A stretch of DNA of 32,000 bases from Crocosphaera subtropica ATCC 51142 (GTDB lineage: Bacteria; Cyanobacteriota; Cyanobacteriia; Cyanobacteriales; Microcystaceae), in NCBI RefSeq assembly GCF_000017845.1, contig NC_010546.1:60001-92000 (forward strand). The letters are read 5' to 3'. Made by a program: the position numbers and the translations under genes. The notes under the pieces are model-generated. The model worked only from the letters and a program-made list of their open reading frames with translations, did no database searches and had not been told where the DNA came from. Shown one piece after another: positions 22,373-31,926 of the stretch; position 1 is the stretch's first letter, and each line of letters opens with the position of its first letter.

Positions 22373-23197
22373 ATGAAAACAGATACTATTTTTTATCGTC
22401 TCTTTCAATCTTTTCCTAGCATTTTCTTTGAATTAATTCAAGTTCCCGTTACCCAAGCAGATAACTATCGCTTTGATTCCGTAGAAGTTAAACAATTAGC
22501 TTTTCGTATTGATGGGGTATTTCTTCCGAAAAATAATAACCTTGACAGTCCCATTTATTTCTGTGAGTTACAATTTCAAAAGGATGATCAATTTTATGAA
22601 CGTTTCTTTGCTGAAATCTTCTTATATCTCAGTAAAACCGAATTAAATAATGATTGGCAAGGAGTGATTATTTATCCTAATCGTCAAATAGAAACGCAAC
22701 AAACACAACGTTATCAAGAAGTGTTAAATTCCCCAAGAATTACTCGTATTTATTTAGATGAGTTAGCCAATCTTAATCAAACCTCAATTGGGTTAGCAAC
22801 GATAAAATTAATTACCTTACCTTCAGCAGAAACCATTGAAAATACCCGTCAACTCATACAAAGAGTAAAAGGAGAATTCAACCCTGACCAAAAACCCCAA
22901 GAACTCTTACAATTAATAGAGACTATCCTTGTGTATAAATTACCCCGTTTAAGTCGTCAGAAGGTAGAAGCGATGTTTAGTTTAGATGAATTAAAGCAAA
23001 CTCAATATTTTCAAGATGTCCGTGAAGAAGCAAAACTTGAGGGTATCCAAGAAGGAGAGTTAAGGGCAAAAATTACTTCTGTACCCAGTCTTTTAGCCTT
23101 AGGTTTAACTGTTGAACAAGTCGCAGAAGCGTTAAAGTTAGATATTGAACAAGTTAGACTCATACAAAATAATAACGAACAAGGGGCGGATCAGTAG
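22373..23197 (+). CDS. Rpn-family / DUF2887-type PD-(D/E)XK recombination-promoting nuclease (putative transposase-like)
   Basis: 274-aa ORF. The N-terminus MKTDTIFYRLFQSFPSIFFELI and the FRIDGVFLP...IYFCELQFQKD (D...ExQ) nuclease core are typical of this multi-copy cyanobacterial family. Confidence 0.75.
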   Translation: MKTDTIFYRLFQSFPSIFFELIQVPVTQADNYRFDSVEVKQLAFRIDGVFLPKNNNLDSPIYFCELQFQKDDQFYERFFAEIFLYLSKTELNNDWQGVIIYPNRQIETQQTQRYQEVLNSPRITRIYLDELANLNQTSIGLATIKLITLPSAETIENTRQLIQRVKGEFNPDQKPQELLQLIETILVYKLPRLSRQKVEAMFSLDELKQTQYFQDVREEAKLEGIQEGELRAKITSVPSLLALGLTVEQVAEALKLDIEQVRLIQNNNEQGADQ

Positions 23198-23261
23198 GAG
23201 AGGATACGGTGTCCTACTGTCGCCCCAACTTTTATTAATTTCATAACACTATTTCATTCAA

Positions 23262-23699
23262 CTATGGTGTTTCGCCACCGACACCGATGCCTGTGTTAAA
23301 GATTTGTGCGTTGGTAATGTCTAGGTTTTCCATAGATGCGCCGGTTACGTCTGCATCATAAATTTTGGCGTTGGCTAGGTTAACATTATCTAAATTCGAG
23401 TTATTTAAGGTAGCATTGGTTAACATAGCTCCTTCTAGGTTAGCTCCTTCTAGGTTAGCCCCGGTGAGATCAGCCCCTTCTAGGTTGGCTTCAATAAGAA
23501 TTGCCCCTTCTAGGTTAGCCTCTCTGAGATCAGACCCAATTAAATGAGCATATCTTAAGTCTTCGTTACTGAGATCGCACCCCTGACACATTCTGGTTTC
23601 TAATAATTGTTGAACGTGGGCCGGGTTTCCTGCCATGACAGGACTAGCTAATAAAATAGGGGTAGCTAATAAGATGGCGTTTAATATATTCCTTTTCAT
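23262..23699 (-). CDS. Secreted pentapeptide-repeat protein
   Basis: The likely start is ATG 23699 (MKRNILNAILLATPILLASPVMA signal), preceded by GAGGAG. The body is A(N/D)LxG-type repeats (ANLEGAILIEANLEGADLTGANLEGANLEGAML...). Confidence 0.85.
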   Translation of the reverse strand: MKRNILNAILLATPILLASPVMAGNPAHVQQLLETRMCQGCDLSNEDLRYAHLIGSDLREANLEGAILIEANLEGADLTGANLEGANLEGAMLTNATLNNSNLDNVNLANAKIYDADVTGASMENLDITNAQIFNTGIGVGGETP

Positions 23700-23847
23700 A
23701 TTTGATACTCCTCGCATTTCTTTTATACTTCTAATGTAATAAATCTTCATGACAATCTCATCCCCCAATCGGGTTATTTTTTTGTTCCCGTTTTCTTACA
23801 ATTTAATTCTACAATTGGATTCAAAAGGGGTATCAAAAGAAATTATT

Positions 23848-25494
23848 ATGTTTAGTTTTAGTAGTGTTTTTGCAGAAATCGCCTGTATTATGGCGATCGC
23901 AACGGCTGTGGGAGGATTAGCTTTGTGGTTGCGTCAACCTTTAATTATGGCGTTTATTATTGTCGGTATTCTCATTGGTCCGGCGGGATTACAGATAGTT
24001 TCGGCCAATGAAGAAGTGGAATTATTGGCTGAATTGGGCATTGCTTTATTGTTGTTTGTGGTGGGATTAAAACTCGATCCCCATGAAATTCAATCCGTTG
24101 GTCCTGTGGCTATTATTGCCGGCATGGGTCAAATTATAATAACGGGAATTTTAGGGGATGTGATTGCTAGTTTTTTAGGTTTTGATCTTATTTCTGCTTT
24201 TTATATTGGTTTATCTTTAACCTTTTCTAGTACCATTATTGTTGTTAAATTATTATCAGATCGACAAGAAATTGATGCGTTACATGGCCGCATTGCTTTA
24301 GGGGTTCTCATTGTTCAAGATTTAGTGGTTGTTGTCGCTATGATTTTGTTAACGGCGTTTAGTGAGGATTCACAACAGTCTTTAGGACAAGAGATTATTT
24401 CAGTGATCTTAAAAGGAGGAATCTTTTTATTATTCATTGCTTTTTTAACCCGTTATGTTTTACCTAAATTGCTCCATGTTTTAGCTAATTCGACGGAATT
24501 GTTATTAATTTTTGCTATTTCTTGGGCGATCGCTTTAGCAGCTGTGGGAGACGGTTTAGGCTTTAGTAAAGAAGTGGGGGCATTTGTGGCAGGAGTGTCT
24601 TTAGCATCCACCACTTATCGAGCAACCATTGGAGCTAGATTAGTCAGTTTACGAGATTTTTTATTACTGTTTTTCTTCATTAATTTAGGGATTCATGTTA
24701 ATGTTAGTTATTTAGGCTCAGAAATCATGTCGGCTGTTATTTTATCGGCCTTTGTTTTGTTGGGTAAGCCTTTAATGATCATGGTGTTAATGAGTATTAT
24801 AGGTTATCAAAAATATACTAGCACCATTACCAGTTTATCTTTGAGTCAAATTAGCGAATTTTCTTTAATTATTGCCACTTTGGGACTGGATTTAGGTCAT
24901 ATTAATGAGAATGTTTTAGGGTTAATTACGTTAGTGGGACTCATTACTATGGGGGTGTCTACTTATATGATTATTGACTCTCATACTATTTATGAAAAAT
25001 TATTACCTGTTGTTTCCCATTTTAATAAATTAATCCCCCATTCTCACCAAAAATTAGGGGATTTAGATGCAGAAAAGGTTGATCGTGTTGATATTATTTT
25101 ATTTGGTTTAGGACGGTATGGCGGTAGTTTGATTAAAGCGTTACAAGGTTCGGGTTTACAGGTTTTAGGGGTAGATTTTAACCCAGAATTAGTGAGAGCA
25201 TGGCGTAATCAAGGGGTATTAGCTTTTTATGGCGATGCAGAAGATCCTGAATTTGCAGCAACCCTTCCTTTAAATAAGGCAAAATGGGTCATTAGTACCT
25301 TACCGGGACAACGTATCGGATTAACTTTATTACACACATTAGAATATCAAAAATTTCAGGGTAAAATTGCTGTTACCAGTCACACCGAACGAGAAATGAA
25401 AATTCTCAAAAGTGCAGGTTCGGATCTGGTTTTATTGCCTTTTAGAGATGCAGCCCACGAAGCTGCTAGACTATTAGTTTCTGACCTTAATTAA
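23848..25494 (+). CDS. Cation:proton antiporter (CPA2/Kef-type) with C-terminal RCK/TrkA-N domain
   Basis: The likely start is ATG 23848 (MFSFSSVFAEI...). It has about 12 hydrophobic segments with LGPAGL and QDLVVV motifs, then the Rossmann-like segment ILFGLGRYGGSL. Confidence 0.85.
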   Translation: MFSFSSVFAEIACIMAIATAVGGLALWLRQPLIMAFIIVGILIGPAGLQIVSANEEVELLAELGIALLLFVVGLKLDPHEIQSVGPVAIIAGMGQIIITGILGDVIASFLGFDLISAFYIGLSLTFSSTIIVVKLLSDRQEIDALHGRIALGVLIVQDLVVVVAMILLTAFSEDSQQSLGQEIISVILKGGIFLLFIAFLTRYVLPKLLHVLANSTELLLIFAISWAIALAAVGDGLGFSKEVGAFVAGVSLASTTYRATIGARLVSLRDFLLLFFFINLGIHVNVSYLGSEIMSAVILSAFVLLGKPLMIMVLMSIIGYQKYTSTITSLSLSQISEFSLIIATLGLDLGHINENVLGLITLVGLITMGVSTYMIIDSHTIYEKLLPVVSHFNKLIPHSHQKLGDLDAEKVDRVDIILFGLGRYGGSLIKALQGSGLQVLGVDFNPELVRAWRNQGVLAFYGDAEDPEFAATLPLNKAKWVISTLPGQRIGLTLLHTLEYQKFQGKIAVTSHTEREMKILKSAGSDLVLLPFRDAAHEAARLLVSDLN

Positions 25495-26099: not shown

Positions 26100-26124
26100 T
26101 ATCTCCGTAGAGAGGGAGGAGATA
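26100..26124 (+). promoter_or_regulatory. Hairpin able to sequester the Shine-Dalgarno site and start codon of the TIR-fusion gene
   Basis: TATCTCC (26100-26106) is the exact reverse complement of GGAGATA (26118-26124). The 3' arm contains part of the GGGAGGAG ribosome-binding site and the A of the ATG at 26124. Confidence 0.4.
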
Positions 26125-27719
26125 TGTATAATCAACCTGACGCTAATAAATTTGAATTTGATGTTTTTCTAGCTCACAATCACGACGATAAGCGACAGAT
26201 AAGAAGTATTGCCCACGAACTCAAATTACGTTTTATAAAACCTTGGTTCGATGAAGAGCAAGTTCCTCCAGGCACTCCATTTGGACGGATAATTGAAGAG
26301 GCAATTCCCAAAGTTAAATCGGCTGCAATCTTTATAGGTAAAAATGGTCTAGGAAATTGGCAAAAAGCAGAACAGCAAGCATTGAACCAAAGATGCGTTG
26401 ACGAAGGAATTGCTATGATTCCTGTCTTACTACCAGAGGTTGATCAGGTTCCTGAAGATATAAAGACTTTGTTTTTGATTCAACTACATAGCTGCGTGAA
26501 GTTTGATAAAGGAATTTATGACGTTAAGGCACTAGACAATCTAGAGTGGGGCATTACTGGACGTAGACCTCGAAGGGAACATTATGGAATACTAGTTAAT
26601 ATTCCCAACTACCAAACAAGCTGTTTTTTAGCAATGCCGAAACGGGGATTAGATAGTATTTACGAGTCACTCAAAGATGTAGCTAAGGAGGTATCAGTCA
26701 AACAATTAGTCAATAACACAGGCATCGAACTAATTCAAACCAAAAATAAGAGTGATCAAGGCTTTGTAGGTGATATAAATGAGATAATTCACAAAATTCG
26801 TTCATCTGAGGTGGTTGTGGGGGTGTGCGTTTCAGAAGAGAAATCTTCTCAGCTAGATCCAGATGTGGCATACGAATTAGGACTAGCTCATGCTCTGGGT
26901 AAACCGCTTTGCATCATTACTGATAAGACTACTCACCAATCTCTTTCTGACTATATTCTTAAAGACATACCAGAGGATGAATTTATTGACTACGAGTTGT
27001 CGAAAAGTAAAGGAACTTTGAGTGACGAACTCAAAAACAAGTTAGAAGAGATTCTTAAGTCTCTAAAGTTCCCTTATTTAGTTGAGCCGAGAAATCGAGA
27101 TATTAGTGCTATAAATTGGGAGAAAACACAATGTTTTCTTCCGAATTTTCAAAATAATTTCTGTAATATTCTTCGTTTTGGACTAGAGATTCATACGGAA
27201 TTTCCCTCTCTCCAAACTCTTCTTACAAGTCTTTATAAAGAGATCGAAGAAGTTGCGGAAACTCTGCAAGATCCAAGCACAACTAGAAATCTAGAAAAGG
27301 AGATTAATGATGTTATCAAGGCTTGGAAAGACTATAAACAGAAATATGAAGGATTATACCCACTCAATTCAAATAACGCTCAATTGAGGGAATTTAAAGA
27401 TACCAAAGACTTCAACAGTCTTAAAGATTCTTTCCAGAGTTTGCAATCGGATATGAGTACCAGAAACCAATTTGGAAAACAATCCTATCAAGCGTATAAA
27501 ATAGTTATCCAAATAATTGAAGCTTATCCTAATCTTCATCAACGCTTATCCGATATTTTAGATAATGAGGAGGTTTTCAATATGTTACAGAAATTTGTGA
27601 ATGTTGATTCCTTGGGTAAAGATGTTAAAAGATTAATCGGAGACATTGACCAATTAGTATATATGCGTGCAGGTACTATGATGAGAAATCTGGCAGAAAT
27701 GATTTGCTGTAATCAATAA
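26124..27719 (+). CDS. TIR domain / nucleoside 2-deoxyribosyltransferase (DNPH1/Rcl)-like domain fusion protein with ~200-aa helical C-terminal region
   Basis: 531-aa ORF with a strong SD. Residues ~11-140 (FDVFLAHNHDDKRQIRSIAHEL...PWFDEEQVPPG...IEEAIPKVKSAAIFIGKNGLGNWQKAEQQAL...IPVLLPE) follow the bacterial TIR_2 pattern, with candidate catalytic Glu83 (GAA 26370-26372). Residues ~165-270 have a flavodoxin-like alternation and LDPDVAYELGLAHALGKPLCIIT. That resembles the NDT/DNPH1 hallmark (D/S-x-G-x-x-[FY]-E-x-G-x-A-x-A-x-x-K-P), with Glu251 at 26874-26876. Confidence 0.75.
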   Translation: MYNQPDANKFEFDVFLAHNHDDKRQIRSIAHELKLRFIKPWFDEEQVPPGTPFGRIIEEAIPKVKSAAIFIGKNGLGNWQKAEQQALNQRCVDEGIAMIPVLLPEVDQVPEDIKTLFLIQLHSCVKFDKGIYDVKALDNLEWGITGRRPRREHYGILVNIPNYQTSCFLAMPKRGLDSIYESLKDVAKEVSVKQLVNNTGIELIQTKNKSDQGFVGDINEIIHKIRSSEVVVGVCVSEEKSSQLDPDVAYELGLAHALGKPLCIITDKTTHQSLSDYILKDIPEDEFIDYELSKSKGTLSDELKNKLEEILKSLKFPYLVEPRNRDISAINWEKTQCFLPNFQNNFCNILRFGLEIHTEFPSLQTLLTSLYKEIEEVAETLQDPSTTRNLEKEINDVIKAWKDYKQKYEGLYPLNSNNAQLREFKDTKDFNSLKDSFQSLQSDMSTRNQFGKQSYQAYKIVIQIIEAYPNLHQRLSDILDNEEVFNMLQKFVNVDSLGKDVKRLIGDIDQLVYMRAGTMMRNLAEMICCNQ

Positions 27720-27741
27720 TTAATTAGTTAGGAGACTTGAA

Positions 27742-28899
27742 ATGAGTACACTAGAATGTGAAGTCAACCAAAGCTTGGATTTTTCGTCACTTAAGAATTG
27801 TCATGAAGAACTTTACCAAAAAGTTAGTGATATCATCATTAAGCAAGAAATATCAGAAACACAAAAAGAAAAAAATGACTGTTCTAAGGAAATGCAGGAG
27901 GTTAGTGATAGTGTAAAAAACCTTCTCAAAAATCTTGCAGAATTTGCTCCACAAGTTACTTCAATTGATGAATCCAATTGGGTGAGAGAAGCTTCTTATG
28001 AATGGGGTGCTGTGGGAGATTGTCTTGACCTAAACTTGTCCTTGTTGGACACAACAGAGAAACATACAAAGGTGGGAAATATTGGACAAAAAATTCTGTC
28101 TTTATTGCCTAATGAAATTCCAGAATTTTCTTTAACGCCAAAAATCTCTAAGAAATATCTAGAAAAAGAGGCTTACTGCTTAGGTCAGGCTCGAAAAGAA
28201 AGATTGCTAAAAAAATTACTCGGCGAATATCGGCATCTTATTCATAACCTAATTCCAAGCGATTTAGAGAATATGAAAATGGACTGGTGTAGTGCTTGCA
28301 CCTATTTTTCTTCTAAAATTCTCGAAGGTAAGCTAGATTTTTCTTCTCAAATCGAATCTGACTTATATCATTACTTAGAAGAAGTCTGGTTAGAAGATGT
28401 TAAGCACCTGAGAGCTTACGAAATTTGGTGGAAGAAGGGACATAATCGGATTTACGAAGAATCTACCACAGTTAATTATTATTTCCAAGCTTGTCAACAA
28501 ATAATGGCTAGTCTTGTTGATCCTTATATCAAAGCTCCCTTCAGTCGGTTTGAAGAACTAAAAAATTACTTAAAAAATTGCTATTTGACTGAGGAGGGAA
28601 AACTTGATAAAGACAAGTCGAATACCTTGATAGAGATCAAAGCTCATCGAATTTGGGAAACAACAAATAACTCCAATAGTTCAGAAAACTGGTCATCTGC
28701 TCAACAGTATGTTGAAGATTTCTATGAAAATATTATTCCTGCTGTGGTAGATGGTGATCTCGAAAGCATTACTAAGGTTAAAAATGCCATTCAAGCTATC
28801 AACGATCCTACTCATTACCACATTATTAACTGTTTTGAAGTGGCACTCGTTATCTACTTTCTTCCTTCAGACGTACTGGAAGATGTTGAGAAACTTTAG
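27742..28899 (+). CDS. Hypothetical helical protein with DUF2934-like repeated motifs
   Basis: 385-aa ORF, 22 bp after gene 1, with AGGAG 7 nt upstream of the ATG. The motifs VKHLRAYEIWWKKGH...NYYFQAC and IKAHRIWETTNN...NWSSAQQYV resemble the DUF2934 RAYxxW...W..A pattern. I saw no enzymatic motif. Confidence 0.6.
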   Translation: MSTLECEVNQSLDFSSLKNCHEELYQKVSDIIIKQEISETQKEKNDCSKEMQEVSDSVKNLLKNLAEFAPQVTSIDESNWVREASYEWGAVGDCLDLNLSLLDTTEKHTKVGNIGQKILSLLPNEIPEFSLTPKISKKYLEKEAYCLGQARKERLLKKLLGEYRHLIHNLIPSDLENMKMDWCSACTYFSSKILEGKLDFSSQIESDLYHYLEEVWLEDVKHLRAYEIWWKKGHNRIYEESTTVNYYFQACQQIMASLVDPYIKAPFSRFEELKNYLKNCYLTEEGKLDKDKSNTLIEIKAHRIWETTNNSNSSENWSSAQQYVEDFYENIIPAVVDGDLESITKVKNAIQAINDPTHYHIINCFEVALVIYFLPSDVLEDVEKL

Positions 28900-28916
28900 A
28901 ATAGGTTAGACAACTG

Positions 28917-29768
28917 ATGAAGAAACATCTCCTTGTTTCACTAGCTCTAATACTGTCAGTGGTTTTAGTGTCAAAAGTTCCACCATTGGTCAACGTTTCA
29001 GCATCTAACGCTCCTCAAATAAACCTTGAAGCAGAAATACAAGGGTTAGCTCATAGTGATGTCAAGGACAACATTCCCAGACGCACTGATTTTGTTATTG
29101 AACTTTATCACGATAACTCTCAACATCTAACCCCTCCAGAGATTAGGAAAATTTACGATGAAGCTTACAGTCAACAAGTACGAAAAAAACGCATTGTCAG
29201 GAAATTTGTTGGGTCAGCAATTGCTATTTTGATCATTGTTCTGTCTATTTTAGCGATCGCTATATGGTTATCGGATAAGACAGGAGTCCCTACCTTAAAG
29301 CGAGTGTCTGTTAATCTTCCTTTCGGTATTGGTTGTATTGAATTAGAAATCAACAGGGTAGAACAAATAGTAGCATGGTCACTGTATGTGGAACTGGTTA
29401 CACGCATTGCTATTCAGCCTCTTAAATCAGATGAAGGACTCTTAAAGGAAGCACTAACCTCACTACATAGCTTGTTTGACACAACCCGTCAGATTCTTAA
29501 AGAAGCTGGGCCAGTTGTGGGTGTCTCTCCTCAGTCAGTTGGTGGTATAGCGATTGCTGTACTCAATCAAGGTATTCGTCCTTTCCTTGCTAAATGGCAT
29601 CCTGCTTTAGAAGATTGGGAATCAAAATGTCTCAGTACCACCAGTAATAAACAACACGAGAAAAACTGGGATCAAGAACCACAGTTACGCCATGAACTGG
29701 AATTACTCAGACACCATCTAAAGCAATATGCAGACGCATTGGCTAAAATTGCTGATGTAACCTTTTGA
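28917..29768 (+). CDS. Membrane protein with two hydrophobic segments and a ~160-aa helical C-terminal domain
   Basis: 283-aa ORF, 17 bp after gene 2. The hydrophobic segments are aa 5-19 (signal-like, ...VSA/SN) and aa 97-118 (FVGSAIAILIIVLSILAIAIWL), the latter preceded by RKKRIVRK. The C-terminal domain is AWSLYVELVTRIAIQPL...LFDTTRQILKEAGP...LNQGIRPFLAKWHPALEDWE. Confidence 0.65.
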   Translation: MKKHLLVSLALILSVVLVSKVPPLVNVSASNAPQINLEAEIQGLAHSDVKDNIPRRTDFVIELYHDNSQHLTPPEIRKIYDEAYSQQVRKKRIVRKFVGSAIAILIIVLSILAIAIWLSDKTGVPTLKRVSVNLPFGIGCIELEINRVEQIVAWSLYVELVTRIAIQPLKSDEGLLKEALTSLHSLFDTTRQILKEAGPVVGVSPQSVGGIAIAVLNQGIRPFLAKWHPALEDWESKCLSTTSNKQHEKNWDQEPQLRHELELLRHHLKQYADALAKIADVTF

Positions 29769-29797
29769 CTCCGACCAATTAGGTTTCAACATTTCCA

Positions 29798-30340
29798 ATG
29801 TTTATTATGAATCAAGAAAGAATTATTTTTGGCAGTGACTGGGTTACTGTTAAAGAAACAGCGAGAGGCTTTCAGTATTTGGAGAGGAAAGGAAAAGATT
29901 CAGTCGCAGTATTTCTTTTGAGAAGAAAAAAGCTAAATTCACAAGCTTATGAAGTAATGATTCGGCAACAGCCCCTTTGTATTGATAATCACGAACTTCA
30001 TGGGAAACTCAAACTCTATCCTTGTCCCATCACTGGGGGGATTGATCAAGGAGAAACCCCAGAACAAGCAGCTATTAGGGAAGTTGAGGAAGAATCGGGT
30101 TTTTCAGTGCAGGTTTTGCCTCTCGGTCGATATATTGTCGGGACACAAACTAATGAAATCTGCTATTTATATTATGCTGATGTCACTAAACTAGAGCCAG
30201 AAGAAGCGAAACAAGATGGCACTTACTTCGAGTTGATCAGTAAAAATGAATGGCATGATTTTGAGTATTTGAGTCAGTGTGATTATTCAGCTTGTCAGAT
30301 AGGGTATTTTCGGTTGAAAAATGTGTTGGATCTTGACTGA
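29798..30340 (+). CDS. Nudix hydrolase
   Basis: 180-aa ORF (alternative ATG at 29807). GGIDQGETPEQAAIREVEEESGF, aa 80-102, nt ~30035-30103, matches the Nudix box Gx5Ex7REUxEExGU exactly. Confidence 0.85.
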   Translation: MFIMNQERIIFGSDWVTVKETARGFQYLERKGKDSVAVFLLRRKKLNSQAYEVMIRQQPLCIDNHELHGKLKLYPCPITGGIDQGETPEQAAIREVEEESGFSVQVLPLGRYIVGTQTNEICYLYYADVTKLEPEEAKQDGTYFELISKNEWHDFEYLSQCDYSACQIGYFRLKNVLDLD

Positions 30341-30380
30341 GATGATGTGGTAATTGTAATCATCGACTTTTTTCGATGAT
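30341..30380. terminator. Overlapping hairpins at the convergent Nudix/mobA junction
   Basis: GATGAT (30341-30346) pairs with ATCATC (30359-30364), followed by a T6 run at 30368-30373. There is also a perfect 8-bp stem ATCATCGA (30359-30366) / TCGATGAT (30373-30380). Only 19 bp separate the two stop codons, so the structure overlaps the last mobA codons. Confidence 0.4.
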
Positions 30381-30971
30381 TCCCTTGAGATCCATCTGGG
30401 TATTACAATTAAAAAGAACAGAGCGATCGCTGACAAATAGTTCTTGGACATATTCGCATTGTAACCATTGCTGAAAGGATCGCCCTCCTGCTTGGATAAA
30501 GCTCTCTAGGGACGTTAAACAAGAAGAACGATAAAACCCACACAACGGGTCCCACCCTTTTTCATGAAGGGGTAAACAAGCAGTGACTTGATCAGAAACT
30601 TGATGTAACTGTTGTAACCATTCCTCGATGGCTTGAGTTGTTAAGTTAGGTAAATCACAGGCTAACAATAACACCCATTCTGTCTTAACATGGGATAAAG
30701 CTTGAGCGAATCCCACTAGCGGACCTTGACTATCTCCCGATGGACATACTTCTTGCAATAGATAACAGCTTGAAGGAACGATCCTTTGATAACGCTCTAT
30801 CCAAGGGGTAATAATATAAATAGGGTTAGCATATGCTTGGATTAAGGTAGCACTCCGTTGTAACAAGGGAACGCCTTTAATCTCAATCAGTGCTTTATCT
30901 TTGCCCATACGGGAGCTTTTACCCCCTGCAAGGATAATGGCACTAAGAGCGGATTGGAAAGGTTTTTCCAT
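30360..30971 (-). CDS. mobA: Molybdenum cofactor guanylyltransferase
   Basis: 203-aa ORF. AIILAGGKSSRMGKDKALIEIKGVPLL and LLACDLP are canonical MobA motifs. Confidence 0.88.
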   Translation of the reverse strand: MEKPFQSALSAIILAGGKSSRMGKDKALIEIKGVPLLQRSATLIQAYANPIYIITPWIERYQRIVPSSCYLLQEVCPSGDSQGPLVGFAQALSHVKTEWVLLLACDLPNLTTQAIEEWLQQLHQVSDQVTACLPLHEKGWDPLCGFYRSSCLTSLESFIQAGGRSFQQWLQCEYVQELFVSDRSVLFNCNTQMDLKGIIEKSR

Positions 30972-31528: not shown

Positions 31529-31705
31529 CTAGAATAGGTCGTTTTTCATCAAATCTCTGATTAGATTGTCTCTAGCCATGATTTGCTGCATGGTGTCGAT
31601 CAAGTAATCAATGACTTGTTCCCGTTCTAAGTCTTGGAACTCCTGCTGTAAGCATTGCAGTTGAAACTGCTGTTCCATCGATAGTTCAAAGGTTTTTGCG
31701 TCCAT
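31529..31705 (-). CDS. nblA: Phycobilisome degradation protein NblA (copy 1)
   Basis: The ORF extends to 31717 (MEFIM...). ATG 31705 has GGAG 6 nt upstream. FELSMEQQFQLQCLQQEFQDLEREQVIDYLIDTMQQIMARDNLIRDLMKN fits the NblA pattern (LSxEQxFxL...EQ...L...Q.M...N) and its size. Confidence 0.8.
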   Translation of the reverse strand: MDAKTFELSMEQQFQLQCLQQEFQDLEREQVIDYLIDTMQQIMARDNLIRDLMKNDLF

Positions 31706-31761
31706 GATAAACTCCATTAGTAAATTGATAGTTAGTGAAATTGTTATGGGTCAATAGAGAA

Positions 31762-31926
31762 CTATTTGCCCAAGTTGCGAACCACATTTGTTTTAATCAT
31801 TAATAGTCGTGATGCTTGAATCAACAAATCTAATGCTTGTTCCCGACTCATTTGAGTGGCCGCATCACGAATCCGTTTCATCTCAAATTGTTGTTCTAAG
31901 GTTAGATTGCAAGAGGTGTTTTCCAT
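31762..31926 (-). CDS. nblA: Phycobilisome degradation protein NblA (copy 2), below the ORF-track size cutoff
   Basis: My reverse translation gives MENTSCNLTLEQQFEMKRIRDAATQMSREQALDLLIQASRLLMIKTNVVRNLGK (54 aa), with AAGGAG 5 nt upstream of the ATG (reverse complement of 31924-31926) and stop TAG (reverse complement of 31762-31764). It has the same LTLEQQF...REQA...L...LM pattern as copy 1. Confidence 0.75.
   Translation of the reverse strand: MENTSCNLTLEQQFEMKRIRDAATQMSREQALDLLIQASRLLMIKTNVVRNLGK

Follow-up and report, generated by a model that had tools for sequence, protein, structure and literature searches.

The window analysed here is a 32,000 nt stretch of the Crocosphaera subtropica ATCC 51142 chromosome, and all positions refer to it. 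Four open reading frames on the + strand, g1 to g4, are separated by gaps of 22, 17 and 29 bp, and the ORF coordinates agree in this with an earlier, sequence-only reading of the window. The features below all lie on this strand. The first gene, g1 (26124–27719), encodes 531 aa with a TIR domain, an NDT-like domain and a helical C-terminal domain. It is followed by g2 (27742–28899), encoding a helical accessory protein of 385 aa, by g3 (cce_0095; 28917–29768), encoding a membrane-anchored protein of 283 aa that carries a domain we call g3C and is a probable ThsG-like effector, and by g4 (29798–30340), encoding a Nudix hydrolase of 180 aa. A search for + strand terminator-like sites found none in the three gaps; this fits a single predicted operon without proving it. 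Upstream, a Kef-type antiporter gene ends at 25494, and downstream a MobA-like gene (30360–30971) is convergent with g4; together with MetH and ClC these make up a housekeeping neighbourhood. The four genes had been taken for an inserted accessory cassette, a claim for which we obtained no independent marks. Neither repeats, tRNA genes nor an integrase were found in a search around the locus, and the G+C content shows a mild dip only (0.33–0.36 vs. about 0.36–0.41 in the flanks). The housekeeping neighbours and the lack of a mobile-element mark at this locus are observations that count against a role in defence.

The TIR domain of g1 (26157–26567, about residues 12–148) matches Pfam TIR_2 over residues 14–122 (E = 1.5e-13), and Foldseek aligned its model with the TIR domains of SARM1 and AbTir (TM 0.73–0.78); the mean pLDDT of the g1 AF2 model was 68.5. 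The candidate catalytic residue E83 is a glutamate in 8/8 TIR-bearing rows of the family alignment, and a TIR domain with a catalytic glutamate is a trait of Thoeris. The middle domain (26601–27023) resembles nucleoside 2-deoxyribosyltransferases, or “CMP hydrolases,” with E251 as the candidate nucleophile. Residues 220–271 scored 26.0 bits against PF05014, which is under the cut-off of 28.8 and covers profile positions 55–102 only, and the region also matches CAP12-PCTIR_TIR. Six full-length homologs of g1 were found (33–56% identity); PF05014 is a precomputed match for two of them (P0002 and P0004) and for a TIR-less relative (P0067). The nucleophile motif reads YELG..HALGKP, and F168, M171, P172, Y180, V248, Y250, E251, G253, H256, A257 and K260 are invariant in the family alignment. 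The C-terminal domain, g1C (27054–27716), is all-helical with long helices in the AF2 model; a profile search gave no significant family match and found no TPR. Other cyanobacterial multidomain TIR proteins are 50–60% identical to the g1 TIR domain and carry variable C-terminal domains.

Homologs of g2 are scarce, with only eight among 5.8 billion proteins. In every context read (C. subtropica, L001, L002, L025 and L123–L125) a g1-type gene immediately precedes g2, and g1C and g2 always occur together. We regard g2 as a rare accessory gene restricted to the g1-type sub-clade. It had been called DUF2934-like, which we find weakly supported: g2 of C. subtropica does not match PF11154 at E ≤ 1, and two of the eight homologs match it with a best E of 0.0037. 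Nor did we detect any profile similarity between g2 and g3C. The co-occurrence of the four genes could be confirmed outside C. subtropica, as the order g1-g2-g3-Nudix recurs in three Xenococcaceae MAG contigs (L025, L123 and L124), and L001 and L002 contain g1-g2-g3 without the Nudix gene. That g1-g2-g3 can lack a Nudix gene, and that the Nudix gene stands alone in Pleurocapsa, L018 and Scytonema, counts against the four genes being one module.

The third gene had been described simply as a membrane protein. Hydrophobic segments are indeed present, but the notion of a generic membrane protein is not supported; its C-terminal domain belongs to a TIR-linked family. A transmembrane segment lies at 29205–29270 (residues 97–118), with Kyte-Doolittle 19-mer values of up to 2.97. 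A first hydrophobic segment at 28929–28991 (about residues 5–25) depends on the choice of start codon and is lost with the later RefSeq start, which gives 260 aa. The g3C domain itself (29289–29765) comprises ~155 aa, predicted to form a β-hairpin and four helices; its single-sequence AF2 model was poor (pLDDT 48.6). The family has no annotation. We found at least 529 metagenomic relatives and 1188 cluster representatives at E ≤ 1e-3, and an alignment of 78 sequences had a mean column identity of 72%. Among representatives with an N-terminal extension, 36 of 54 contain a TM-like segment.

Genes encoding g3C occur next to TIR genes across phyla, and a conserved effector gene beside the TIR gene is a further Thoeris trait. 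Directly downstream of g3C, 34 of 46 distinct neighbors are same-strand TIR_2 genes at a gap of 10–50 bp; three others are Nuc_deoxyri_tr2 and two ThsB_TIR genes, and upstream neighbors add five TIR_2 and three ThsB_TIR genes. The TIR partners include nine GUN4 fusions and seven FGE-sulfatase fusions. We regard g3C as the family-defining partner of TIR genes. In C. subtropica and Microcoleus the TIR gene precedes g3C, the reverse of the usual order, a single g3C can share an operon with up to three TIR genes, and in Lyngbya g3C is paired with a STAND NTPase without a TIR domain. In Bacillota-like, Pseudomonadota and Actinomycetota sequences, family members are also found on plasmids and (pro)phage contigs, an integrase and ParA adjoin the L002 locus, and on a Calothrix plasmid two g3C genes lie in an island rich in TIR genes. 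As to the location in defence islands or mobile elements that is typical of Thoeris, relatives lie on plasmids, on phage-like contigs and beside an integrase, and the C. subtropica locus is without mobile-element marks. On rhizobial plasmids, amid TIR genes, g3C is fused to patatin-like phospholipases. Fusion to either TM or patatin modules fits a signal-sensing domain with interchangeable killing modules. Across cyanobacterial orders, g3C, TIR and Nudix sequences are 55–79% identical, which is atypical for fast-evolving defence genes and counts against defence.

The nearest known relative of this pair is type VI Thoeris, which consists of a ThsB TIR protein and a ThsG/DUF6650 effector and uses 2′cADPR as signal (Yirmiya et al., bioRxiv 10.64898/2025.12.03.692087). 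At three non-cyanobacterial loci (L105–L107) the g3C-like proteins match C. subtropica g3 with E-values of 1e-22 to 1e-26, and their partner TIRs are 43–53% identical to tested type VI Thoeris TIRs (E 1e-38 to 1e-47). In hhalign, a g3C profile of 178 sequences aligned with the TM-type effector beside an E. coli ACN001-like ThsB with a probability of 54.8% (P = 1.2e-4), and the register was identical in two shallower runs. With HMMER alone, TM-type effectors could not be separated from background for g3C. Pfam DUF6650 (PF20355) did not match g3C, and the same library is blind to the validated E. coli effector too. A P2-like prophage hotspot harbors the validated E. coli pair. The occurrence of g3C beside type VI-like TIRs and the hhalign result together suggest that the core is a Thoeris-like TIR-effector pair. 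We also considered placing the g1 TIR itself within the validated type VI ThsB clusters and rejected this, as it showed no significant similarity to six type VI TIR domains (their Table S1; best E 0.037). The signal of the C. subtropica system may therefore differ.

The fourth gene matches PF00293 with E = 1.3e-11 (45 bits, cut-off 21.1). Its Nudix box (30035–30103, residues 80–102) reads GGIDQGETPEQAAIREVEEESGF in translation and has the pattern GX5EX7REVXEEXGF intact, so that both the superfamily box (GX5EX7REUXEEXGU) and the fold profile are present. With this, the TIR and Nudix assignments of the sequence-only reading are borne out, and the NDT-like one holds as a likeness, with an invariant E251 motif and a 26.0-bit match just under the cut-off. 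The g4 family is widespread in cyanobacteria, with 63–79% identity and more than 326 homolog clusters. ADP-ribose pyrophosphatases reportedly carry a marker proline some 15 residues beyond the Nudix box, a rule that goes back to Dunn et al. in 1999. We considered this subfamily for g4 and did not retain it: g4 and its family profile resemble ADPRases of the PDB in the box region only (E about 1e-4), and reading the sequence directly we found no proline at +15/+16 after the box.

In cyanobacteria, at least six arrangements place the Nudix gene beside g3C. Among 80 metagenome loci selected for g3C, of which only 22 extend for 1.2 kb or more to each side, a Nudix gene is present in six, always 17–138 bp from g3C (binomial P about 1e-10), and among six Nudix orthologs sampled without g3C selection three adjoin g3C. 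It abuts g3C and not the TIR gene, on the same strand on either side or convergently, with varying gene order; the far-side genes also vary (mobA, gltB, IS200/605, a sigma factor). The linkage extends to two Streptomyces plasmids with the orders Nudix-g3C-TIR and TIR-IS5-g3C-Nudix. The Streptomyces enzyme is of the ADPR-pyrophosphatase type, with full-length similarity (PDB 1mk1, E = 2.8e-14) and the proline, and shows no BLAST similarity to g4, which points to independent recruitment. That the Nudix hydrolase is a functional part of a TIR module, as had been suggested, therefore gains comparative support from varied arrangements in two phyla; a restriction of the Nudix gene to the cassette is not supported, as neither TIR nor g3C adjoins it in Pleurocapsa, L018 and Scytonema.

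Taken together, we think that g1–g4 probably form a Thoeris-like, TIR-based signalling defence module in a cyanobacterial variant, which would presumably act against phages in C. subtropica. Upon a putative trigger, g1 would serve as signal generator, its TIR domain being predicted to convert NAD+ to an ADPR-derived second messenger; if type VI Thoeris is a guide, the messenger would be 2′cADPR or another cyclic ADPR isomer. The NDT-like domain, with its intact nucleophile motif, may cleave N-glycosidic bonds of nucleotides and so be a second, built-in effector. The main effector would be g3, whose cytoplasmic, ThsG-like g3C domain would bind the signal and oligomerise, upon which the N-terminal membrane segment or segments would damage the membrane and growth would stop. 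Acting on the signal or on ADPR, g4 would hydrolyse the pyrophosphate bond; this would set a threshold for the system or reset it, and would shield the cell against leaky TIR activity. For g2 we envisage a clade-specific accessory role, perhaps as sensor or adaptor.

The same genes could instead serve cyanobacteria in a physiological role unconnected with defence, as a module for NAD+/ADPR signalling or programmed cell death in which the variable C-terminal domains of the TIR proteins (GUN4, FGE-sulfatase, TPR, WD40, NDT plus helical) read internal states and g3C and Nudix act downstream as conserved components of a housekeeping circuit. The chromosomal housekeeping context in C. subtropica would suit such a role, as would the identities across cyanobacterial orders (g3C 55–77%, Nudix 63–79%) and the frequent GUN4 (9) and FGE-sulfatase (7) fusions, GUN4 being read as a tetrapyrrole sensor in the GUN4 passages of Kaur et al. 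(PMC7159879). We nevertheless consider it unlikely, because plasmids, a P2-like prophage hotspot and phage-like contigs of unrelated phyla all carry the gene pair, beside ThsB-type TIRs of validated defence systems, and because of the integrase and ParA at L002 and the Calothrix plasmid island. A different possibility is that only g1–g3 constitute the system and that the Nudix gene is an unrelated core cyanobacterial gene whose neighborhood TIR cassettes simply favor as a landing site. The wide distribution of the Nudix family, also without TIR or g3C neighbors, and the existence of g1-g2-g3 without Nudix agree with this. A landing site predicts conserved flanks, however, and far-side genes (mobA, gltB, IS elements, a sigma factor), orientation and order all differ. 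The Nudix gene moreover keeps its 17–138 bp distance specifically from g3C instead of abutting the TIR gene, and a non-orthologous Nudix gene abuts g3C on the Streptomyces plasmids, so we hold this account to be quite improbable.

We give slightly less credence still to a toxin-immunity pair that dispenses with a second messenger, with the TIR as an NAD+-depleting toxin, g3C neutralizing it and the Nudix enzyme mopping up ADPR. The small g3C gene usually lies directly upstream of the TIR gene at 10–50 bp, which is the classical antitoxin-toxin order, and Yirmiya et al. (bioRxiv 10.64898/2025.12.03.692087) caution that in some of the unverified TIR operons the TIR itself may act as NADase effector. 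Against this, fusions of g3C to TM segments and patatin phospholipases are features of effector modules and not of antitoxins, the TIR gene comes first in C. subtropica and Microcoleus, up to three TIR genes accompany one g3C, and the Lyngbya partner is a STAND NTPase without TIR. Returning to the defence module, we tentatively raise a further idea, which we ourselves regard as rather doubtful. The Nudix enzyme may be a host-encoded, dedicated off-switch for TIR-made ADPR-type signals, recruited independently in cyanobacteria (the g4 family) and actinomycetes (the ADPRase type), and the cyanobacterial TIR-g3C-Nudix trio, instead of a mobile cassette, may be an ancient circuit for immunity or cell death that was retained vertically. 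If this is true, the g3C-linked Nudix would be the first regulator built into a Thoeris-type system to clear its signal, and would correspond in bacteria to plant NUDT7 and to CRISPR ring nucleases.

CRISPR type III ring nucleases are host regulators that degrade an immune second messenger. In Arabidopsis, NUDT7 cleaves TIR-linked 2′,3′-cNMPs and restrains EDS1-dependent cell death (PMC9153377). The logic proposed for g4 is by analogy the same: an enzyme that is encoded with a TIR or cyclase pathway, or acts on one, would remove its nucleotide signal. In cyanobacteria, TIR-GUN4 and TIR-FGS proteins have been described, and the GUN4 fusions interpreted as sensors of tetrapyrrole status, in the GUN4, Nudix, TIR and FGS passages of Kaur, Burroughs, Iyer and Aravind 2020 (PMC7159879). 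The g1 TIR belongs to the same clade, with variable, sensor-like C-terminal domains, whereas the small g3C partner and the Nudix neighbor are unmentioned in those passages. The middle domain of g1, with its YELG..HALGKP motif, is probably of the same NDT/CMP-hydrolase superfamily as the type VIII Thoeris effector ThsI, a “CMP hydrolase and TPR” protein (Yirmiya et al.). Plasmids of Acinetobacter and Latilactobacillus encode, next to TIR genes, NDT+TPR proteins whose NDT-like domain our g1 NDT-like profile matched with about 29 bits; from their architecture we take these proteins to be ThsI. In contrast to ThsI, the NDT-like domain of g1 is fused to the TIR domain and is not a separate effector, and no TPR was detected in g1C.

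A check against PADLOC gave domain-level matches for the TIR (PDC-S66, ThsB) and weakly for the Nudix domain (PDC-S07) and no single system with all components; g2, g3 and the g3C relatives had no match in PADLOC-DB v2.0.0. The claim that the locus matches no named system is nevertheless not supported for its core, as TIR plus g3C is a widespread Thoeris-like module closest to type VI. Both have a two-gene core of a TIR protein and a helical protein of ~160 aa and no known fold, and both occur in Pseudomonadota, Bacillota, Actinomycetota and Cyanobacteriota. N-terminal TM helices are found on some effectors of each, as reported for ThsG (Yirmiya et al.) and as seen in g3 (residues about 5–25 and 97–118). 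Unlike in type VI Thoeris, the g1 TIR carries fused NDT-like and helical domains and shows no detectable closeness to the validated ThsBs, and the C. subtropica locus adds g2 and a Nudix gene; the preprint mentions no Nudix link. We conclude that the TIR-plus-effector core, as judged from its kinship, is not unmatched but of a kind that this preprint of December 2025 describes. Specific to this locus are the fusion of the TIR to NDT-like and helical domains, the g2 gene and the Nudix gene adjoining g3C.

The four ORFs lie on the + strand of the window at 26124-27719 (g1, a 531-aa protein with TIR, NDT-like and helical parts), 27742-28899 (g2, a 385-aa helical accessory protein), 28917-29768 (g3, cce_0095, a 283-aa membrane protein) and 29798-30340 (g4, a 180-aa Nudix hydrolase). 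The window comes from Crocosphaera subtropica ATCC 51142, in which g2 and g4 find 100% matches. The gaps of 22, 17 and 29 bp are exactly those claimed in the sequence-only reading, and no terminator-like sites were found on the + strand between the genes. The flanks are also as described there, with a Na+/H+-exchanger/TrkA-N (Kef-type) gene on one side and a convergent MobA-like gene on the other. This layout had been taken for that of an inserted cassette. We searched the surroundings for direct and inverted repeats, tRNA genes and an integrase and found nothing convincing, the G+C content shows only a slight dip over g1-g2, and the other genes nearby have housekeeping roles (cobalamin-dependent methionine synthase, ClC channel). 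The cassette interpretation is therefore without independent support. Just upstream of the Kef-type gene (22373-23768), a DUF2887 gene (E=4.8e-85) adjoins an opposite-strand ORF, the translation of which, read by eye, has pentapeptide-type repeats with the motif ANLEGA. Two adjacent small ORFs on the - strand (31529-31717 and 31762-31926; 62 and 54 aa) have similar 'LEQQF' helical sequences and presumably resemble tandem NblA-type phycobilisome-degradation proteins.

The TIR domain of g1 was confirmed by a match to TIR_2 (E=1.5e-13). An alignment-based AF2 model (pLDDT 68.5) gave TM values of 0.73-0.78 on the TIR domains of SARM1 and AbTir, and every TIR-bearing g1 homologue in the alignment has a Glu at the position of E83, the candidate catalytic residue. 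Residues about 160-300 are NDT-like. They score 26 bits with PF05014 against a cut-off of 28.8, and precomputed PF05014 assignments exist for two of the six full-length homologues and for the TIR-less relative P0067. The family alignment contains an invariant block (V248, Y250, E251, G253, H256, A257, K260) that includes the candidate nucleophile, E251. The last ~220 residues are long helices without a family assignment. With about 29 bits, the family profile also finds the NDT-like domain in 'NDT + TPR' proteins that are encoded beside TIR genes on Acinetobacter and Latilactobacillus plasmids; these proteins appear similar in architecture to the type VIII Thoeris effector ThsI, a 'CMP hydrolase and TPR' protein (Yirmiya et al., bioRxiv 10.64898/2025.12.03.692087). 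With its TIR-NDT fusion, g1 suggests that one polypeptide can unite signal generation with an effector that cleaves nucleotides.

The only other complete four-gene locus is from a Xenococcaceae MAG (L123:3512-4867 and L124:397-1752). There the gene calls split the g1 homologue into a TIR fragment of 88 aa and an ORF of 265 aa; it is either a pseudogene or the product of an assembly error. In L003:2877-6198, and likewise in contigs L004 and L005, a separate 232-aa TIR gene precedes an 879-aa g1 homologue with an extra N-terminal ParA/AAA_31-like region, and g2 and g3 are absent.

The last ~155 residues of g3 (g3C) correspond to a strongly conserved ~165-aa protein encoded next to TIR genes in many cyanobacteria. 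We recognised it by two routes, from the contexts of g1 homologues and from a scan of genome contigs with the Nudix protein. A metagenome scan with the g3C alignment yielded at least 529 relatives, and exhaustive phmmer searching yielded 1188 cluster representatives at E<=1e-3 and 580 at E<=1e-10. In the loci retrieved, 34 of the 46 distinct genes that follow g3C on its strand after 10-50 bp match TIR_2; three others match Nuc_deoxyri_tr2 and two ThsB_TIR. The C-terminal fusions of the partner TIR proteins vary (GUN4, FGE-sulfatase, TPR, AAA_16), and the upstream neighbours include additional TIRs and two WD40 proteins. As a TIR lies beside g3C in most loci and the TIR fusions vary, we conclude that the conserved unit is g3C + TIR-X, the g1 of the window being one X variant. 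The g3C family thus regularly accompanies the multidomain TIR proteins that abound in cyanobacteria, a group whose phage defences have, to our knowledge, been little studied.

The g2 protein is a rare add-on to this unit. It has eight homologues and, in every context read, lies directly after a g1-type gene. It had been called DUF2934-like, which we could not substantiate, as weak matches were seen in just two of the eight homologues and no family emerged. Profile comparison of g2 with g3C found no relationship, and scans of g2, g3 and the g3C relatives with Pfam, NCBIfam, PADLOC and PHROGs gave no meaningful family. DUF6594, matched by 10 of 78 g3C members with a best E of 0.033, was dismissed as noise. 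The g3C profile had no hit under E=0.36 among PDB sequences, a single-sequence AlphaFold model reached a pLDDT of 48.6, and a phage-type g3C protein had no tblastn match in 50,697 GenBank phages.

Many g3C proteins carry TM-like N-terminal extensions, as ThsG, the DUF6650 protein of type VI Thoeris, sometimes does. For g3 itself the number of TM segments depends on the start chosen, since the RefSeq protein (260 aa, WP_243397363.1) starts 23 codons (28917-28985) after GenBank cce_0095 and lacks the first hydrophobic segment. Rhizobia have g3C joined to patatin-like phospholipases in the midst of TIR genes. TM-like extensions and phospholipase fusions are together what one would expect if the domain senses a signal and is linked to exchangeable killing modules. 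On Mesorhizobium and Sinorhizobium plasmids (L117:2869-5445 and L118:3983-6607), proteins of 858-875 aa have g3C as their N-terminal part and are encoded amid several TIR genes. One of these proteins is annotated as a patatin-like phospholipase, and they would be fusions of a g3C sensor to a phospholipase effector. Two or four g3C domains occur in tandem in P0275, P0284 and P0291 (619-664 aa) and in about 15 proteins of ~400 aa, and may mimic the oligomer proposed for ThsG. On the mobilizable plasmid4 of Calothrix sp. NIES-4101 (L115:1-10453), a TIR-rich island beside ParB and transposase genes holds two g3C genes, a TIR-GUN4 gene and, on the opposite strand, TPR and WD-repeat genes with TIR matches. 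In Lyngbya aestuarii (L128:6520-10788), a g3C 66% identical to that of the window follows a 1191-aa STAND-type NTPase (SMEK_N / AAA_16 / NPHP3_N) without a TIR. Therefore, g3C can pair with non-TIR partners.

The Nudix box of g4 is intact, in agreement with the original call. Matches to solved Nudix enzymes are confined to the region around the box, on which grounds we dismissed an ordinary ADPR pyrophosphatase. The family comprises more than 326 clusters across cyanobacteria at 63-79% identity, and members without a nearby TIR or g3C occur in Pleurocapsa PCC 7327, L018 and Scytonema HK-05. A main rival explanation is accordingly that the Nudix gene is a mere neighbour, and at first it did look like a housekeeping gene. 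However, it adjoins g3C far too often for a plain housekeeping neighbour. The Nudix gene was present in 6 of 80 loci chosen by g3C alone (flanks of at least 1.2 kb on both sides in only 22), always 17-138 bp from g3C, which corresponds to a binomial P of about 1e-10 against an expectation of 1 in 4000. Three of six Nudix orthologues sampled without g3C selection adjoin g3C, and the genome-contig scan with a single Nudix protein returned two cyanobacterial loci, both informative.

The window and the Xenococcaceae contigs L024, L025, L123 and L124 have g3 and Nudix on one strand. Two Calothrix MAGs have the order Nudix-g3C-TIR-GUN4, and L094 has Nudix-g3C before the contig ends. Microcoleus-type contigs have TIR, TIR, TIR-GUN4 and g3C convergent with Nudix, with gltB as the far-side gene; in one of them (L020:4271-8173) the proteins of the three consecutive TIR genes have 283, 282 and 358 aa, GUN4 being part of the third, a single g3C follows, and the opposite strand has a Macro-domain gene 2.3 kb upstream. 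Nudix is also convergent with the g3C of the STAND NTPase locus in Lyngbya and, in L003-L005, with the gene for the 879-aa g1-like protein; the Nudix orthologue there is 73% identical to that of the window. The most telling case is that of two Streptomyces plasmids with the orders Nudix-g3C-TIR and TIR-IS5-g3C-Nudix. The Nudix on these plasmids belongs to the ADPR-pyrophosphatase type (PDB 1mk1, E=2.8e-14) and has no BLAST similarity to g4. Because order and orientation vary, the far-side genes differ and the second Nudix is non-orthologous, we argue for a functional link between Nudix and g3C and against an integration hotspot.

In the mechanism that we favour, the TIR of triggered g1 would convert NAD+ to an ADPR-derived signal, which g3C of the membrane-anchored g3 would bind, oligomerising and compromising the membrane. 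The NDT-like domain may add cleavage of nucleotide N-glycosidic bonds. The Nudix enzyme would act by hydrolysis on the signal or on ADPR and in this way impose a threshold or reset the system, much as the plant analogue NUDT7 restrains TIR/EDS1 signalling (PMC9153377). Two further main rivals concern the system as a whole. The genes could form a non-defence NAD+/ADPR circuit of cyanobacteria, in favour of which are the high conservation and the housekeeping context, or the TIR could be a toxin and g3C its immunity protein.

Thoeris-type TIR signalling is common to bacterial, plant and animal immunity. Type VI Thoeris consists of a TIR protein and ThsG, uses 2'cADPR as signal and occurs in Pseudomonadota, Bacillota, Actinomycetota and Cyanobacteriota; the DUF6650 protein ThsG has no known fold, its model is a hexameric tube, and some versions bear N-terminal TM helices (Yirmiya et al., bioRxiv 10.64898/2025.12.03.692087). 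Beyond cyanobacteria, plasmids of Photobacterium, Vibrio, Ruegeria, rhizobia and Streptomyces carry g3C relatives, as do the phage-like IMG/VR contigs L105-L107. In these contigs the gene before g3C encodes a ThsB-type TIR, recognised by PADLOC ThsB models with E down to 4e-16. Its TIR domain shares 43-53% identity (E 1e-38 to 1e-47) with TIRs of type VI systems that were tested in that preprint (Tables S1 and S2). The validated E. coli type VI pair (L130:2164-3512), a 243-aa TM effector and a TIR, is present in 42 of 5426 complete genomes of this species and occupies a P2-like prophage hotspot with DinI/replication genes on one side and the portal gene on the other.

Pfam DUF6650 matched neither this effector, which is encoded next to an ACN001-like ThsB, nor its relatives, so the model is uninformative for g3C. 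Protein names in the databases gave no lead either, as all of them read 'hypothetical'. Profile-profile comparison of g3C with the effectors of E. coli, Priestia, Listeria and Lactiplantibacillus gave P=0.04 and then 0.016 in constant register, and a 178-sequence g3C profile (Neff 5) reached Prob 54.8% and P=1.2e-4 against the E. coli effector family. The signal rises with profile depth and came only from deep comparisons of this kind; HMMER g3C profiles did not separate the TM-type effectors from a background of 848 ORFs. We consider it quite probable that g3C is ThsG-like, which suggests a probable function for a family of about 1200 clusters named only 'hypothetical protein' in all sources examined. 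If so, the locus is Thoeris-like, and type VI is its nearest counterpart. Since the TIR of the window itself shows no close relation to the validated type VI ThsBs, the identity of the signal cannot safely be carried over from them. The accessible part of the preprint tables showed no cyanobacterial TIRs or Crocosphaera type VI entries.

Taken together, the observations of the sequence-only reading held, and its interpretation was borne out in part only: rather than a categorically new system, the locus appears to be a variant of the Thoeris kind. The word 'Nudix' is absent from the preprint text (bioRxiv 10.64898/2025.12.03.692087), and neither there nor in the accessible literature naming both Nudix and Thoeris did we find a host enzyme that switches off a bacterial Thoeris signal. 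Of the new features of the locus, the most interesting is the linkage of Nudix and g3C that recurs across phyla, which makes the effector-side Nudix, seen in two phyla and two Nudix lineages, a testable candidate for an off-switch regulator.
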